NCBI GenBank assembly: GCA_964016885.1
Contig: OZ024753.1
Location: 30,690,001 to 30,754,000, forward strand
Length of the DNA stretch: 64,000 nt
Reading direction: 5' to 3'
Source: Eledone cirrhosa
Taxonomy: Eukaryota
Made by a program: the position numbers and the translations under genes. How positions within the stretch are numbered: the first letter of the stretch is position 1; every line of letters starts with the position of its first letter. Of the stretch, positions 14,340 through 56,789 are shown in pieces. The notes below the pieces were generated by a model, which saw only the letters and a list, made by a program, of their open reading frames with translations, had not been told where the DNA came from and ran no database searches.

Positions 14340-14588
14340 CCCTCTTCCTACTATATCAAGCGTTAACTTAATATATCCCTTCCATATACTGTACCGATTG
14401 TGTTGTTATTTCTGTTTACCTTTTACATACATATATATATACAAATATATATATATTTATATTTTAGTCTGATAGTGGGGTTTAAAACCCTCTATCAGGA
14501 TAAAATTTATTTAGTCAAAAATACAGCGATAGCTTCTATTTTTAATAAATTTCAAACTTCACTTGCTGTTTCCATCAAACTTGCTTTG

Positions 14589-14620
<32 letters not shown>

Positions 14621-14684
14621 CAACACCTCTTTATAAATGTGTATTTTCAGCACTTTGTTTGTTTGTTTGTTTGTTTGTTTGTAG

Positions 14685-14848
14685 GTCAGTATGGGATGGT
14701 TATTGGAGAACTGCTGGAGACAGGAGAATGTCCAACAATTAGGGCCATCAAAATGCAAGACCTTGGAACAATACCTAAAGTCAGTGATTTGTGGAAACTG
14801 GAAGTTATTGATATGAATTTGGCTCATCTACAGCATGCAGGTCAATAG
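14685..14848 (+). CDS. RMI2: RMI2 coding exon 3 (terminal)
   Basis: GQYGMVIGELLETGECPTIRAIKMQDLGTIPKVSDLWKLEVIDM aligns with human RMI2 GKYVMVMG...LQAVKMTDL...MWELEVED; acceptor TTTGTAG; total protein 143 aa. Confidence 0.9.
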
Positions 14849-17799: not shown

Positions 17800-18115
17800 A
17801 TGAGTATTTGATAGTGATTGCCCCTATCACTCTTGCTATCATAAAGAAATAGGGGCTCATGCACTGGTTGCCCGTGGCCCCTGTGGACAGAATAGAGAAG
17901 GCATTTCCCCGGATGTTTTTGAGGGGAGACTCGTTGGAAGAGCCATTCCAGCTTGCGAGGCTCACACATGCGGGGAGCCAATTCCGTACCAATGGTAGTG
18001 AGTAGGGAGGTGGTTCTAGGGCCAAGGATACCAGAAGTCTCCACTGCTATGGGCTCAACTTCAAACCTGTCAGAGAACAACCGATATTTGGAGAATTTAC
18101 CCTCCTTGGCCTGAA
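17800..18115 (-). mobile_element. CRE-clade retrotransposon 3' end (REL endonuclease region)
   Basis: KFSKY..PIAVETSGILGP...WLFQRVS then frameshift to IRGNAFSI; the K--KY / P---ET-G / QR-S----RGNA pattern is typical of CRE. Confidence 0.7.
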
Positions 18116-18218
18116 GTGTATTCATTATGGCAGACACTACAGCATAAATCCTAATTGACTGATGGTGCAACTCCATTATATCTCAAGATAGATGGATGCC
18201 AAATATATATATATATTT

Positions 18219-18343
18219 CATCATCATCATTGTTTAACGTCCATCTTCCACGCTTGCATGGGTTTGGACGGGAGTTTTCCCACTTGAGGCAAGATTTGTT
18301 GTCCTGCTCGTAGGACTGTCTGGCGGGTTTTCTACGGCTGGAT
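18219..18343 (-). mobile_element. RTE family A terminal ~125 nt
   Basis: Matches reverse complement of 32370-32495. Confidence 0.85.
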
Positions 18344-18609
18344 AATACAGAGATAATACAGTAATCGGCTTATGTATTATCTCTTTATCTGGGTCAATTA
18401 CCTCCCTCCCGACCTAGTTGACTTCAAAGAGCAGTGCATATATGCTTTATTTAAAAAAAAAAAAAAAAAAAAATTAGTAGACCAACCGACCTAAAAGGCC
18501 GATTGGTCTACTAATTCTTTTTATTAATTTTATTACGAATTGTACATAAATGAATAATATTATCTCAAAGATATTACAAGTTATACAAATAATGAAAATA
18601 AAAAAAAAA

Positions 18610-19122
18610 TTACAAGTTTTCTTGAAATGGTTCTGGAGAAGTAGCAACTTGGTTTGAGTTCATCAAACGGGCGTATTTTCCTCATCTGTGTTGTTTGGTG
18701 TCGTTTTCTTTGTCTGAGTTATCGTTGTCACTTTCTTCGAATTGCAAAGTGTCCCCGCTTCTATCTGGAGACGGAGTCCGAAATCTGTCTTGTCTTTCTT
18801 TGACTGTTTGTTGAAGTCGTTCGTATTCGTCTAGAATATGAACGAGGTTGTTGTCACTAGAGCAACTGTCTTCATTTACTAAAGCAGAAAAGCAATGTTC
18901 GTAAAACAGAATATTCCATATGAATGGATTCAATTTTTTTTTAACGTATTTTAGGAACGGTGATGCTGAATTGAATGTGTATTCAGTGTAACGCGTCAAG
19001 AATGCAACTTTTTCTGAAAGTGGCACGTTTTGGTCAAATTTATTATTTGAAGTGATAATTAACGGCGTACGATGGACTACTTGGTCTTGTTTGAATTTAA
19101 TCGCTACTTCGGTGTCAACACC
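18610..19122 (-). other. endogenous parvovirus/densovirus-like element: NS1 SF3 helicase C-terminus
   Basis: GVDTEVAIKFKQDQVVHRTPLIITSNN (motif B' and C), AFLTRYTEYTF (Arg-finger region), KKLNPFIW, acidic tail; AT-rich with an abrupt compositional change from the adjoining LINE. Confidence 0.8.
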
Positions 19123-22062
19123 TATGTAAGCGTTCGCCACCTCCGCCCGACCTTTCAGGGATAGTTTGCACTTGGGTCAGTGCCAACACCCTATTCGTCA
19201 CCTCACCCCAGTTTTTCTCCACCTGGAGGTCCAGTCCAAACCAGACCCCAAGCAACTTCACCGGGCCCTCCGTCCACCGTCCGACGATACCGTCGGATGA
19301 CATCGGTTTGCCCCTCCACTCGCCGAGTTGCAAAGCGACTGACTTGTCCCGGTTCAGCTTAGCCCCTGTCAACCTTTCATACTCCTCCAGTAAGGTGCCG
19401 ATTGCTCTGATTTCTGCGGTGGTCGACACCATTACTGTTACGTCATCGGCATAGGCCGACACCGCTTTGCGCAATCCCGGTTCCAAAGGGATGCCCTGCA
19501 CCAATTCCAACTTCCGCAGTAGTGGCTCGAGAGCATTTCTGGACAACTTAAACAGTCCCTATCCTTAATTCTAACTAAGAACCTATCTAGGTACGATCTA
19601 GATTGACCGCTGTGGTTTGTCCAAGTCCAGGTTGACACAGTTGGAAAATCTGGTCAATATCTATCGGCCAGATCAAATCGGCCGATTAACCCTTTGAGGT
19701 TGTTACACCCCCTCTATCGGGACATGTCCCTACATAGTCTCAACGTGCATCTAGGATACCATTCCAGTCCCCCACTAAAAGCAAGGAGCGGGACGTCCCT
19801 AGAAAAGTCTCCAGGATATGGAAGAAGTCCGACCACATTGCCCCAAAAGGGGCGTAAATGGCGACAAGCCTAAAAGCTTAGCCTTCACCACTGCCAAGGT
19901 CCAGAACCACCAGTCGACCCTCCAGGTCCAAGTTTACCGTCTGTGTAGCGAGACCCAGATGTTTTTGCAGCAGAACGACACCCCCACCCCCACCTCCGGG
20001 CTGACAGAGAGATGCGTGCATCTCAAAGTCATCAAAGGTGGGGGCTAGTTGTCGCACGCTGCTGATCCGGGCCTCGCAAATAACCATCACATTTATAGAT
20101 CGTGACTTGAGGTCATTTAGAAGTTTAGCTTGCTTCCAAGGTGAACCCAGGCCACGCGCATTTAGACAACCTACTCTTAACACAGCCATGTTGGTGGTAA
20201 ACAAAGAAGCACTTACCTCTCTGCGTCCCGGGGTCCGGGCTGTTCAGTTTCCATGGGGGTCGGGAGGGGTTGTTGGGTGGGGTGGTGATGTAAGGGTATT
20301 AGTGTGTGGGGTGTGTGGTGGGTGTTTGAAGAGGGAGGCGAAAACCTTTCAGGAGGACGCGGTTGAGTGGCCTGGTGCAGGGTGGCCCCACGTCCTCAGG
20401 GTAAATGTTTTTCAATGTTTTAAAAATGTCAAGTGGGACCTTCACCATTTTCAGGTTAGGGAGTCCCGTTGCCATTGTAACATTCGGCCCTTCGGTTTGT
20501 ACCGAAGGGTTTATTTTGTCTAAGTTTTTATTGTTTTTGTTTATGTATGTGTAGAGTTTTTGTATTGTTTGTTTTTGTTTGTTGTTCTTGAGTGAGCTTG
20601 CGTTTTGTTGTCTGTGTTGTGTTGTCAGGTGGGGTTATTTTTGTTTGTGTGGTGTGTGTACGTTTTTTTCTTTTGACTTTTTGGAAAGGAGCCCTCTCGT
20701 CTTTCGAGGATATGAGCTCCTCTTCCGTATTGGAGGGGAGGGGTATATTGCCAGGTTGTGTTTGCACTGTGTGTGTATTTGTGTTCTGTGGGGAGGGGCT
20801 GGGTGGGACCGTATTTTGGGTTTGTTTTCTTGAGCTGTTGTTGTTGTTGTGGTGGTGTTATTGTTTGTGGTGTTTGTAATAAAGGTTTCTTTTTTATCAG
20901 TTGAGGGCATGCAACCCTCAGGTGACCTCTGCTTGCGCAGTGGTAACACGCGGGTCGCCTACCCTCAACTGAAATGTTTATGTAAGTTTCTCCATCTAAA
21001 TGAATTCTCTGTGGGATCTTCGCTATCCTTTCTGGGCTCATCTGCACCAGAAGTTCTACGCTGGTCCCACTAAAGACCTCTCTGAGGGACTTTCCAACCG
21101 AGATTATAATGTCTTGGTCAAGGTCTAAAACGCCACAAAGTAGCCACCAAGTGTCTACTTTGGGTCTTATGCAGTGGAATTTTATTTTTTGAGACCTTCT
21201 TCCCATGTAAGACGGGAAAAAGGTGAAGTGGGTGGATACAATGGGCACAATGGAATGTTTTTGCACCATTTCTTGGTCCTTCATAAGCACCGAGATGCTA
21301 CCGAAGAGTTTTCCTTTTTGAATGAACAAAATGTTTTCCATTTGGTTCCTTAAAACCAGCTCTATCTCACTCTGAGGCGGTTGTACTGGTTTTTTTGTAG
21401 CATTCGAGATTGTCCTGAACACCACCGTGCTCGTGGCAATTTCTCTTTTTTATTTCTTCAGGGGAATTAATGCTGAATGAACAATCGGGTTCGAAAGTCA
21501 CATACCTTTTTGCTTCTTCCAACTTTTGCTTTGTGTTGGTTAAATCTAAAGGTAGGAACATTTGTGTTTTTTTTTTACAGTTTCCGCAAAGGAAATTTTG
21601 TTGTTGTTGTCTTTCTTGTTATTGTTGTTGTCGCTGTTCAGTTTGGTGTTCGTATTGGTATCGATAATTTTACCGTTGCTGGTATTGTTTCCAATTTGTG
21701 TCTTTTTGGTTGTTGACTGTTGTTCCTTAACGTTTTTCGTTAAAGGAAGGGGGGGGGGGGAGCTGGACTCTTTGTTCTTTCAATTTTCCTCGAAGATTTT
21801 TTTTTTCTTTGGGGAGCGTGGCACCATGGTTTGTATTAATGCCGTCCATTACTATAAGCCGAGTTCACAAAAATGCAAGATGAAAACTTTCACCCCAAAA
21901 AGGGGCGAAAACAATAATAACCCCAACGTCTGCAGGCCCAAACGAGGGGTTTAAACTATATTACAATAGAAAAATAATCCAAAAACTCGCTCTTTACAAG
22001 GTAAAACCAATGTAAAACACAGAGCTCGTTAATACACGTCTACCTCCGTCAACAGACAGACT
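19123..22062 (-). mobile_element. L1/Tx1-clade LINE, 5' end intact, internally deleted, 3' part replaced
   Basis: ORF1 with CYHCASRGHLRVAC zinc knuckle; ORF2 from 20189 with APE (GCLNARGL, ICEAR, TWTN..SYLDRFL) jumping near 19540 to RT (ALEPLLRKL, AYADDVTV, GAKLNRDKS, KLLGVWF, LSLKGRAEVANAYI). Confidence 0.9.
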
Positions 22063-23164
22063 AAAACCCGACTAGCCAATGGTGCCAATTCTGTCACTTA
22101 AGATAGACAGATACCAAGTATTGGCAGGTTACTATCACAATTACAACATTTCATACAATGTATTCTTTATGGCAGTGTTGTCACAATGGTATATTTCCTG
22201 GCTTTTATTCTTTATGGCAAGAGGTTATCAGGCTCTATTATTTCCTTATCCTGTATTTATTATGGCAACCCAGATCCTCACTGACCAATGGAGCCAATGC
22301 CAAAATATTTCATGTTAGACGGATGCCAAAAAGTAATATAAGATATGTTGGCAGATTGTTATCACACTGTTATATTTTCTTATCCAATATTCATTAAGAC
22401 AACCCAAATCCTGACTGACCCATAGTGCAAATGTCAAAGTGTCTTGAGATAGCTGGATGTAAAATAAAAAAAAAATAAAGAGGATATCAAATGCAGTGTT
22501 TATTGATTATCACAGTTAAATTTAATTTCCTAACCTGTATTCATAACATTGATTTTTTTTTTTTAAAAACTTTGATTTATAGTGAAAAATGTGTATCACA
22601 CAAACCGTTTATAGTGAGAGACAAGCTAAAAGGTGTGCATGCAAGGAATGTGAGAGATGGCTTGTCTGTGTCTGGCTGTCCTGAAATGGTCAGCTACCAC
22701 TTGTAGTCCTAGTTGACCATTATGTGGTCGTACAAAATGAAGAGAGAACAACAAGGAACTAGCTCTCTCATTTGTCATTAAAAAGCTAGGGATGACATCA
22801 TGGTGAATTTTCATTATACATGACAAATTTCAAATATGATAGGGAAATATGCCATATATTTGTATAATAACAAAATTCACCAAAGAGTGGTTTTACTCCA
22901 TATAGTTTGCCACTCGTTCAAAGCCAACATATTCAGTGCCTGATACATTTTAAAAATTGACAGATCTGGCGGAGATAATGGAGGATTGAAAATCAGTTTC
23001 ATTCTTGAGTAATTGTTTTTGCTGAATGATTTGATTTAGGGTAGACTTGAAATATCTATTATTTCCCTTACTGCACCCTCTTTTGTGTCATCTGGTTCTT
23101 ATTCACTGCCTTGGTGTTCACCCTGTCACTCTAATACTCCACCTGTGTCTCTGAAAGGAGAGAC

Positions 23165-53516: not shown

Positions 53517-55357
53517 CAGTTGCATTTATCTTGCTTTATGTTCATACGAATTATCACCAAGTCACAACCAGTGACCTCAAGAGACAACAAGGTCCGCCAT
53601 GTTCAAGAAAGAACATACATACTCACACATGCATCTTTAGTGTTTAGACTTGTGATGTACTTATATTGACAGAATCTTTCTTAGTATATGGGCAGTTCCC
53701 ATTAGTACTATCTTTTGTATTTCTCCTATACGCGGGTTTCCTGGGATTTGCGATAAGTAATCATTAGACCCCTTAGGTATCATTCCCAGAGCGCCCACAA
53801 CCACTGGTATTGTTTTAGTTCTCAATTTTCACATTTTTCCAATTTCTATCTCCAGGTCCTTATACTTGCTCAATTTTTCAAATGTTTTTATAGATACATT
53901 CTTGTCTATTGGAACGGACATATCAATTAGCAGGCATACCCTCTTTTTAAAGTCCTTCAATATTATATCAGGTCTATTTGCATCTATTTTTCGGTCTGTT
54001 TGGATGCTAAAGTTCCACAAGATTAAGATGTGATCTTTTTCAAGTATGGGAGGTGGTTGATGCTCCCACCAATTCTTTTGATGGGGCAGGTCAAAATGCT
54101 TACACATTATCCAATGTATGTATTGTGCAGCTCTGTCATGCCTGTTTAGGTATTCGGTTGGAGCTATAGGACTGCACATTGAAATTATATGGTCAATGGT
54201 CTCTGGTTGTTTTTTGCATACACGGCATAATGGGCTGCATCCATTTTTTATTATGTTGGCTTGGTAATTTTTTGTTGGCAGACACTGATCTTGTGCTGAT
54301 ATAATCAGTCCTTCAGTCTCCGATTTCAGTCCAGAGGATGCCAACCACTGATGGGTTAAAGTTTTGTCAACATCAGGATTGTTAGCTCGTTCTGGGTATT
54401 TTCCATACAGAGGCTTTTCTTGCCATTTCTTAGCCAGTTTCTGTAGCAGTTCTTTCTTTGCTGTTACTTTTACCTGCTTTGCTTTTTCTGTGTTTTCCAT
54501 TTCAGCAGTAAATGGGACTTCTAAAATTTGTAGTCCATTACTGTATCTTTGTGCATCTTTTGTAATGGAATATGATCTTTTGATGCTTTCATGTTTCAAA
54601 ACGAGTTTGATCATCCAATCATGTGATTCCCTTAGATATGTACATAATCCAAGTGTTGCAGTTTTCAACGCAGTGTCTAACTGGACTAACCCATGTCCTC
54701 CTTCTTTCCTAGGGAGATATATTCTATCTATATCTGCCTTAGGGTAATGCATTCTGTGCATGGTTAAGAATTTTCGAATTTTTGTATCGAGCCTACGGAT
54801 CTCTGTGCTTGACCAGTTGATGACATTGTAACTGTAAGTTACTACTGGTATGGCAAGCGTGTTTATGGCATCGATCCTATTCCTTGCATTCAATTCCGTT
54901 CTTAAGATTGCTCTTACTCTGCGGTAACATTCCTTCCTTATCTTTTCCCTCATTGTCGAGTGCTTGATTCCGTCTCCTTCACAAACACCTAAATATTTGT
55001 AAGTTTTTTCTTGATCAAGTTCTCTTATCACGTTCCCCCGATCAAGATTAATGTCTGAACTCTTCAGCAGCTTTCCTCTGGTGAACGTTGCTTTGGCGCA
55101 TTTATCTAGTCCAAACTCCATTTTAATGTCATCACTGAACTGCTCCACAGTGGATAATAGCCCTTGCAATTGTTCTTCATTTTTTGCAAATAGTTTCAGG
55201 TCATCCATGTAGAACAAGTGATTAATGGTTTTGTCATAGACTCTATATCCATGTTTTGTTTCATTGAGCATTTTACTTAATGGTATAAGTGCGATGCAGA
55301 ATAAAAGCGGTGATAAAGAGTCACCCTGAAAAATTCCACAATTAATATTAACTTCTC

Positions 55358-55360
<3 letters not shown>
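53517..55360 (-). mobile_element. R4/Dong-clade non-LTR retrotransposon, 5'-truncated
   Basis: GIFQGDSLSP, HLFYMDDLK, CRVC..ETIDHIISMC, RPDI..IDMSVP..EKLSKYKDL (REL nuclease); premature stop at 53829; flanked by (TAA)n on both sides as expected for Dong. Confidence 0.93.
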
Positions 55361-55405
<45 letters not shown>

Positions 55406-56789
55406 GTATTTTTTCCTGGGTATATTAAACTGCATCCAGTGGCAAAAGTCCAGTTTGGGAATTCAGGAGCTGTGGGGAATGTGGAGTTATCTCTTAGTTG
55501 TTATCACACCCAGTCTGCTCTGGTTCAGGTTAGTAGTACATATTAGGGCCCCATTTATGGATTAAATAACTCGTTTAGTTGAGTGGTGGCGGTAAGGTAT
55601 TATCAGCCATTGAAAAGAAAAGAAAAGATATATCTCTTAATTCAACACTGTAAATGTAGTTGGTGTTAGGAAGGGCATCCAGCTGTCAAAATCCCAGCCA
55701 AAATGTAGTTCTGTTTGAGCAAGACACAGTCCGGCCTGCTGACCAGACTTGTCTCATAATGTGAACAACCTGTCTAACCCATGCAAGTGTGGGACATGGA
55801 TGGTGATCATGATGATGATATGATGGGCTTCGGTGCAGTTTTTCTGTACCAAATTTCACTCAGAAAACCATGGCTGTAATAGTTGCCCAAGGTACCACTT
55901 GAGAGGATAAAACCTGAAACCATGAGGCTGCAAAGTGAATAATTCTTTACTAAATCACACAGTTATACTTGCATCTATTGTGATTACTTTTTCTTTCATT
56001 CTTTTTTTTCTTATTTAAGACAGTAGGATAGGAATTTAAAGAGAATTGGCTGCTATTTCTAGCAGGCAGATGGAGTGACCCTGGCTCATTAACAATTCAG
56101 TAAGTAAGCTCTGGTTACTCTGACACCTCATTTAAAGTGTAAAACTAACTAGGATATTCAACTGCTATCTGACTGTTAGCTAAGACTATAAACTGTTCTT
56201 TGAAACCAAATCTGGTAAATCTTTTATATATGTTCTGTTAGTTTTATACTTACTTAACTCTTAATGTAGCTTGAAGGAAGATATAGATATACAGCAGGCC
56301 TCTGGTGAGTGTTGCTGGATAAATAATATAGGGCAGCACATGAATGGAAATTCTTTCAAGCAATTTGGGATACACCATTGCTTTTGTTCCTCCTTCTGAC
56401 ACTAATATGTGCAATGCTTCATTGACTACTAGTTTATATATATATATATGTATATACATATATATATGTATATATGTATATATGTATATGTACATATATA
56501 TGTGTGTGTGTGTGTGTGTATAAATATATATATATATATATATATATAATAAGGACAAAGTGAAGGTGCTACATAGGAGATATATTGCTCAATCCAGGTT
56601 ACAAATGTTTCTCAAACAGCTGGCTCGTGATCAGGGATGGCACCCTCAGACCAGACTCCAAGTCTACCTGATCCTCAGATCAGTGTTAACACAACAAAAA
56701 TCACACACACACACACACATATATATATATGTACACCAACGTGGATATTCAATTCTTCACTAAACTCACTCCCTACTTTCATTTTACTG

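Follow-up and report, generated by a model that had tools for sequence, protein, structure and literature searches.

A parvoviral genome end joined to a Tx1-type LINE in Eledone cirrhosa and related endogenous copies with the capsid gene ahead of NS1

In the 64-kb stretch of Eledone cirrhosa DNA analyzed here, referred to as the window, the minus strand carries a Tx1-type LINE that breaks off inside ORF2 and continues, without a stop codon, into the last ~780 bases of a parvovirus (18345-19122). The features of the locus are listed in Table 1. The insertion site lies ~3.5 kb downstream of the RMI2 gene, exons of which were seen at 11107-11421 and 14549-14845 (+). Elsewhere the window holds a C2H2 zinc-finger frame at 36280-37107 (+) and further LINE reverse transcriptase (RT) frames at 27077-28225 (-), 30728-32122 (+), and 53832-55424 (-), one of them followed by a PHD finger. 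Repeats occur on both strands across the window with no strand bias.

Table 1. Features of the LINE-virus locus and its flanks (positions in the window)
Feature	Position	Strand	Remarks
Host 5' flank: genome-unique unit of ~135 bp in three copies, the third truncated where the LINE begins	22062..22480	.	single match in genome; repeat families D2-D4
Start of the Tx1-clade LINE with its 5' UTR and a disrupted ORF1 (zinc knuckle)	20128..22061	-	91.5% identical to L077, a full-length copy, starting at base 22061; ORF1 similarity spread over several frames; weak zf-CCHC match
Endonuclease region of ORF2 (aa ~8-186), interrupted by in-frame stops	19531..20210	-	
ORF2 internal 1.3-kb deletion, aa ~187-632	19531..19534	-	4-base overlap
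Final third of the RT domain (ORF2 aa 633-761)	19123..19534	-	93-95% to family copies; RVT_1 145-204 of 205
LINE-virus junction	19122..19123	-	in frame; 1-2 base overlap; covered by a contig from run X4
3' end of parvoviral NS1, from helicase motif B'/C through the acidic tail	18610..19122	-	no Met in fused frame
Two AATAAA signals	18534-18529 and 18525-18520	-	no poly-A tail after; same place in other copies
Sub-terminal viral hairpin	18454..18534	-	z -7.35; varied stems in other copies
GGGA-repeat stem motif common to both viral termini	18400..18414	-	strict motif in 14/39 viral loci vs 0/39 random stretches
Right terminal hairpin, apex and part	18345..18388	-	z -2.63 here; -16.5 in L021, -11.9 in L034
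(ATG)n-tailed repeat, 5'-truncated, RTE/SINE-like 3' end	18218..18343	-	3-base overlap with virus
Host 3' flank: fourth copy of the 5'-flank ~135-bp unit	18100..18213	.	alignment score 83 vs <=47 in 200 shuffles

Tx1, which we take to be a clade of L1-like LINEs ending in a microsatellite, is represented here by a family with an ORF1 bearing a zinc knuckle, an APE endonuclease, an RT, a zf-RVT domain, a (TCTG)n tail, and tandem arrays. Such arrays, seen at L077 and L027, are built by insertion into the family's own (TCTG)n tail. The genome contains ~4,000 candidate places for this family, the best 40 of which were scored and show 93-95% identity, and the LINE portion of the window copy diverges by 5-8% from the copies examined. 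The window copy is doubly deleted and its tail is missing. An earlier note on this DNA had proposed that viral sequence replaces the 3' half of the LINE, but the loss at the 3' end amounts to only ~1.3 of 5.6 kb (23%). A separate 1.3 kb is missing inside ORF2; because this deletion takes two thirds of the RT domain (ORF2 aa 474-718), about one third of the domain remains. In addition, an 11-bp deletion near 19173, 50 bases ahead of the junction, shifts the LINE frame. Both outer flanks are made of one genome-unique local repeat, and therefore little host DNA is missing.

Over 141 aa, the viral fragment shares 66% identity with P0001 (residues 378-516), a 547-aa protein that itself matches Parvo_NS1 with an E value of 1e-18. 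Although the 146-aa fragment alone gave no Pfam NS1 match and nothing useful in a PDB search, this comparison of the 18682-19122 translation supports the identification as parvoviral NS1 made from motifs in the earlier note. A premature stop lies at 18682-18684, 23 codons before the stop shared by the family at 18610-18612. The acidic tail and tandem AATAAA signals that had been pointed out are indeed present, but they do not mark the viral end: viral sequence extends ~175 bases beyond them, through the terminal hairpin, to ~18345, and DNA homology with other copies can be traced past the signals to ~18362. The GGGA-repeat stem motif likely represents NS1-binding iterons. No VP gene and no 5' part of NS1 is present anywhere in the 64-kb window, and for this reason the possibility that the LINE inserted into a preexisting viral copy was rejected. 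At the DNA level, the window piece diverges by at least 25% from every other viral copy. In an NS1 tree built on few columns (93) and containing no named references, its nearest relative is locus L032 (89% at the amino acid level), and it belongs to a supported group made up of 18 genomic and 6 database rows.

At the junction, the frame at 18682-19176(-) runs from the LINE sequence ...LSLKGRAEVANAYI directly into the viral sequence GVDTEVAIKFKQDQVVHRTPLIITSNN..., and the change of origin is accompanied by a shift in GC content from 0.57 on the LINE side to 0.34-0.38 on the viral side. The open reading that had been reported across ~19122-19126 is thus confirmed, with the joint placed between 19123 and 19122. 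At this base, 14 of the 14 other LINE copies fetched carry on with normal ORF2 of the ASVIYY type and not with viral sequence. Furthermore, a short-read contig from sample S2 covers 18523-19172 with 3 differences and reaches 50 bases into the LINE, hence bridging LINE and virus; a contig from sample S1 has just 29 bases on the LINE side and falls below our bridging rule. Across the junction region, 3 of 650 bases are different between the two samples. Organisms B and C contain members of the LINE family and short fragments related to the virus, but no contig bridging the junction was found among those listed, and the reads of a RAD run did not reach it. Together, the bridging contig and the 14 normal LINE copies support a real germline junction. 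Young viral copies elsewhere in the genome imply that virus may be present in the animals, so that an assembly error fusing the LINE to reads of an infecting virus has to be considered; given the bridging contig from a second sample with its three allelic differences, the premature stop in NS1, and the divergence of the piece from all other viral copies, we regard such an error as extremely improbable.

The fused open frame has 164 codons, 146 of them viral, and contains no methionine. As the earlier note had anticipated from the disrupted upstream frames, no fusion protein can be made from this copy: the LINE carries stops and the 1.3-kb and 11-bp deletions described above, and no ATG opens the fused frame. 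The in-frame joint and the run of 146 open viral codons are what one would expect if the locus gave rise to a working RT-NS1 fusion protein or a domesticated piece of NS1, but an in-frame joint is expected one time in three, the Walker A and B motifs are absent from the NS1 fragment, and the fragment carries the premature stop. In addition, another in-frame joint, with a Gypsy integrase, exists at locus L029. Taken with the missing methionine and the damage upstream, this leaves a functional product with hardly any credibility. At L029 (1044-4016 (+), C18 ~15.08 Mb), a Gypsy LTR pol with RT, RNase H, and integrase reads in frame into NS1 residue ~60, and the viral right end abuts a Tx1 ORF1. 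The junction in the window is a real but dead and probably incidental joint. On its own it is an ordinary dead fossil, and its value is as a pointer to the virus family.

A search of the genome with P0001 gave at least 82 matches (79 of 127 candidates were scored), which were merged by hand into ~47 NS1 loci; a VP search gave 78. Ten-kb stretches were fetched around 38 viral matches, making 39 viral loci with the window. The NS1 loci fall into two clades that are ~25-30% identical in NS1. Their NS1 domain matches Parvo_NS1 with E values of 1e-18 and 7e-16, and the top PDB matches are AAV Rep and NS1. A 522-aa frame, here referred to as VP, immediately precedes NS1 on the same strand and has a parvoviral PLA2 domain at its N terminus (PF08398; E value of 1e-13). 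VP resembles the capsid protein of PmMDV (E value of 5e-8), its Atlas neighbors are Cossaviricota, and the top Foldseek matches of its structural model, a low-confidence one with a pLDDT of 40, are all parvovirus capsids. By sequence similarity and predicted fold, VP is thus a parvovirus-type jelly-roll capsid protein. Its best named relative is an Octopus vulgaris protein annotated as "capsid" (37%), which makes an octopus the likely host. We noticed that cluster P0159 consists of five O. vulgaris proteins, annotated as "capsid" or hypothetical, whose neighboring accessions on one chromosome represent an array of related VP copies.

The order of these two genes is VP and then NS1 on the same strand, which is the reverse of the textbook parvovirus order. 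Among 25 loci with both genes, the VP end is adjacent to the NS1 start in 17, with a gap of 58-87 bases in 15, whereas the NS1 end is adjacent to the VP start in none. The second clade has the same VP-NS1 order in 4 loci. One locus, L037, in which a truncated NS1 is followed by a VP fragment, counts against a uniform order. The layout is monosense and not ambisense, a point that bears on the description as densovirus-like in the earlier note. Hairpins are found to the left of VP and to the right of NS1, ~4 kb apart in the endogenous copies; their loops differ, and both contain the GGGA stem. The genome is therefore linear, ~4 kb long, and bounded by terminal hairpins. A circular permutation of concatemers as the source of the gene order was rejected, since the ~60 bases between VP and NS1 are free of hairpins and the hairpins lie outside both genes. 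Because only ~60 bases separate the frames, expression of NS1 would require a promoter within the VP gene, splicing, or a polycistronic transcript.

Several copies carry marks of replication as DNA. Fold-back duplications that pivot on the hairpins were found at five loci (L021, L022, L024, L028, and L034), L034 holding both flip and flop forms of the apex, and long direct repeats flank viral copies, with 78 bases in L041 (oriented 3411-5500) and 370 bases in L026 (oriented 2343-6890). The virus would replicate by a rolling-hairpin mechanism from heterotelomeric ends with shared GGGA stems. Four copies, on contigs C998, C10, C14, and C5, are 99.1-99.9% identical over their shared spans and differ in their flanks and rearrangements; such identity implies very recent infection. 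The young insertions at L021, L024, and L028 abut (TA)n or (TG)n microsatellites, which may point to breaks at fragile repeats as their entry points.

The ~47 NS1 loci and the near identity of copies on four contigs could also be accounted for if the family were no longer a virus but a parvovirus-derived element that spreads within the genome by NS1 nicking. Against this, the copies have no constant ends and no constant duplication length, each being rearranged or cut differently; many lineages are 60-85% apart and are interleaved with database proteins in the tree; the capsid gene with its PLA2 domain has been retained; and an ENA contig of 4,017 bases, which matches the inferred length of the viral genome, carries an NS1 with 38% identity. 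We therefore find such an element quite improbable. This contig may represent a free viral genome. A scan of IMG/VR, where the one match was a false one to a RecA contig, and a scan of JGI metagenomes turned up no free virus, a result that is to be read as a blank and not as absence.

With regard to how virus and LINE came together, we consider it probable that the right end of a virus with VP upstream of NS1 on one strand between two hairpins became attached, through repair of a DNA break, to a Tx1 LINE that was already in place, the last 1.3 kb of the LINE being removed. In the likely order of events, Tx1 would have inserted into the local host repeat array, and viral replicative DNA would then have been end-joined into Tx1 with loss of the target; alternatively, a longer viral insertion beside Tx1 would later have been lost in a deletion that also took the LINE end. 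The arrival of the (ATG)n repeat would be a separate event. Overlaps of 1-3 bases are found at both joints, and the right joint, where the viral end meets host-side DNA, also has a 10-bp direct repeat; overlaps this short do not separate end-joining from RT jumps. The viral 3' end has neither a poly-A nor the (TCTG)n tail of Tx1, and no target site duplication surrounds the whole insert, the longest shared words being 5-8 bases and none of them at the ends. Moreover, the captured part runs past the AATAAA signals into the terminal hairpin, which is untranscribed DNA unless read-through RNA was involved. Tx1 covers 5% of 39 random 10-kb stretches, and a random point lies within 100 bases of Tx1 with a probability of 0.057. 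Contact with Tx1 was seen in 3 of the 38 viral loci other than the window (P = 0.37), a count that includes L025, where the joint is ambiguous (35-190 bases), and excludes L032 (228 bases). LINE contact of viral copies is therefore at about chance level. DNA-level joining is favored because of the hairpin content, the missing tail and duplication, the marks of DNA replication in the family, and the lack of Tx1 enrichment. It counts against this that no empty site was seen and that Tx1, the virus, and the (ATG)n repeat all lie on one strand (chance, 1 in 4), as template jumps would give. All four Tx1-touching viral loci, including the window, are in the same-strand arrangement (P = 0.09 without the window).

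The earlier note had proposed capture of the viral sequence by LINE template switching. In the form that this would have to take, a single retrotransposition event would have jumped from an (ATG)n-tailed RNA (or viral single-stranded DNA or read-through RNA) to the virus, from there to Tx1 RNA, and once more within Tx1. The shared strand of all pieces and the flanks formed by one local array, with little host DNA lost, agree with such a course, and tripartite LINE chimeras are reported to exist (PMC2104539). However, three rare jumps would be needed, the template would include untranscribed hairpin DNA, and neither a tail nor a target duplication is present. The layout is also the opposite of that of known LINE chimeras: as far as the accessible part of a recent preprint describes them (bioRxiv 10.1101/2025.02.02.635956), captured RNA lies 5' of the LINE 3' end and is accompanied by a tail and target duplication. 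Chimeras of U6 with LINE-1 and other LINE chimeras resemble the window locus in that a non-LINE sequence is joined to a LINE in sense orientation, but here the captured part is 3', includes terminal DNA, and has no tail or duplication. Since Tx1 is not enriched at other viral copies either, template-switch capture is not supported, and we hold it to be unlikely at this locus. A case that resembles such a capture, and to that extent speaks for template jumping, is found at L027 (C25 ~7.91-7.92 Mb, oriented 856-7230), where a Tx1 ORF1 is followed by virus ending in AATAAA plus an A-run and then by a complete Tx1 3' end. This structure fits RT capture, and L027 is a better candidate for true LINE capture than the window locus. 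It sits inside the tail of another Tx1. For the window, joining at the DNA level remains our preferred explanation.

Viral copies are clustered in the genome. Thirteen locus pairs lie within 100 kb of each other, compared with 0.07 expected under a uniform distribution, with the qualification that some neighbors may be local duplications, and 15 of the 47 NS1 loci have a neighbor within this distance; the cluster on C12 mixes both clades. Pieces of both clades, mostly on one strand and amid TE fragments, were seen at L025, L026, and L055 (C12 9.00-9.09 Mb) and likewise at C25 7.43-7.46, C18 15.04-15.08, C27 17.61-17.64, and C3 58.11-58.18 Mb, on C841, and at C2 345.37 Mb. Tandem minisatellites derived from a 108-bp NS1 piece and an 80-bp VP piece occur at L046 (C27 17.606-17.610 Mb) and L035 (C27 17.64 Mb), respectively; in the NS1-derived array, the frames are open for >1000 codons. 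According to the available text of PMC6085071, parvovirus-like endogenous viral elements (EVEs) give rise to piRNAs in starfish and sea anemone. These are likewise parvoviral integrations of marine invertebrates, and by analogy it is possible that the clusters of viral pieces described here are piRNA clusters and that the clustered copies could act alike. The window locus, which the earlier note had raised as a possible source of antiviral piRNAs, stands outside any cluster of viral copies, and the repeats around it lie on both strands.

A parvovirus of cephalopods is not in itself new. In the accessible part of the work by Francois (2016; PMC5013282), an endogenous Octopus bimaculoides NS1 of the same family (KOF81493) is reported beside a TE, in addition to Octopus, Sepia, and Euprymna transcripts. 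The earlier suggestion that the locus is evidence of a parvovirus infecting a cephalopod thus stands insofar as a cephalopod host is likely, but it is not the first such sign. KOF81493 and relatives from Lamellibrachia share the NS1 helicase motifs GLPNTGKSMIARS, FKKLAEGTD, and RTPLIITSNN and are likewise endogenous with an adjacent TE, whereas the entries, as given there, are fragments of 246 aa or 515 bases only and say nothing of termini, gene order, number of copies, or young insertions. Octopus parvoviral fragments of this NS1 family have hence been known since 2016; the sources available contained no report of the gene order. Dedicated literature searches on octopus and cephalopod parvoviral EVEs returned nothing relevant, and no VP-first parvovirus was found in the literature searched, subscription journals being mostly outside its reach.

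For placement in a described parvovirus genus, the threshold of NS1 identity to one of its members lies at 35-40% or above. Among 20 of 150 hit clusters looked up, the closest named NS1 is 29% identical. The octopus virus resembles the monosense Parvoviridae (Hamaparvovirinae, Parvovirinae, and Metalloincertoparvovirus/PmMDV) in its ~4-kb size, SF3 NS1, hairpin ends, and placement of both genes on one strand, and its capsid is nearest to those of PmMDV and a pipefish chapparvovirus by sequence and fold. It differs from them in having VP before NS1, as a 2024 review, in the text available, places NS on the left in all parvoviruses (PMC11357303), and in having a PLA2 domain, which PmMDV and the shrimp hamaparvoviruses do not have according to the same text. 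The words "octopus" and "cephalopod" do not occur in the accessible text of this review.

Taken together, these data could point to a living and undescribed lineage of octopus parvoviruses, with two deep clades at the level of a genus or higher, whose hairpin-VP-NS1-hairpin genome is the reverse of that of every described monosense parvovirus, which is still invading the germ line, and whose clustered copies may serve as an antiviral piRNA memory; for this reading as a whole, we see the chances as evenly balanced. Having the capsid gene first would go against what the available text of the 2024 review (PMC11357303) gives as a rule for all parvoviruses, and it raises the question of how early NS1 expression is achieved with the gene at the distal end. 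The near-identical copies on four contigs suggest that a parvovirus is circulating in a cephalopod at present, and the sequences of the young copies could be used for diagnostic screening of wild and cultured octopus. Finally, with dozens of copies of varied ages, frozen replication intermediates, and two-clade clusters in a single genome, the idea that molluscs use EVE-derived piRNAs against DNA viruses becomes directly testable.
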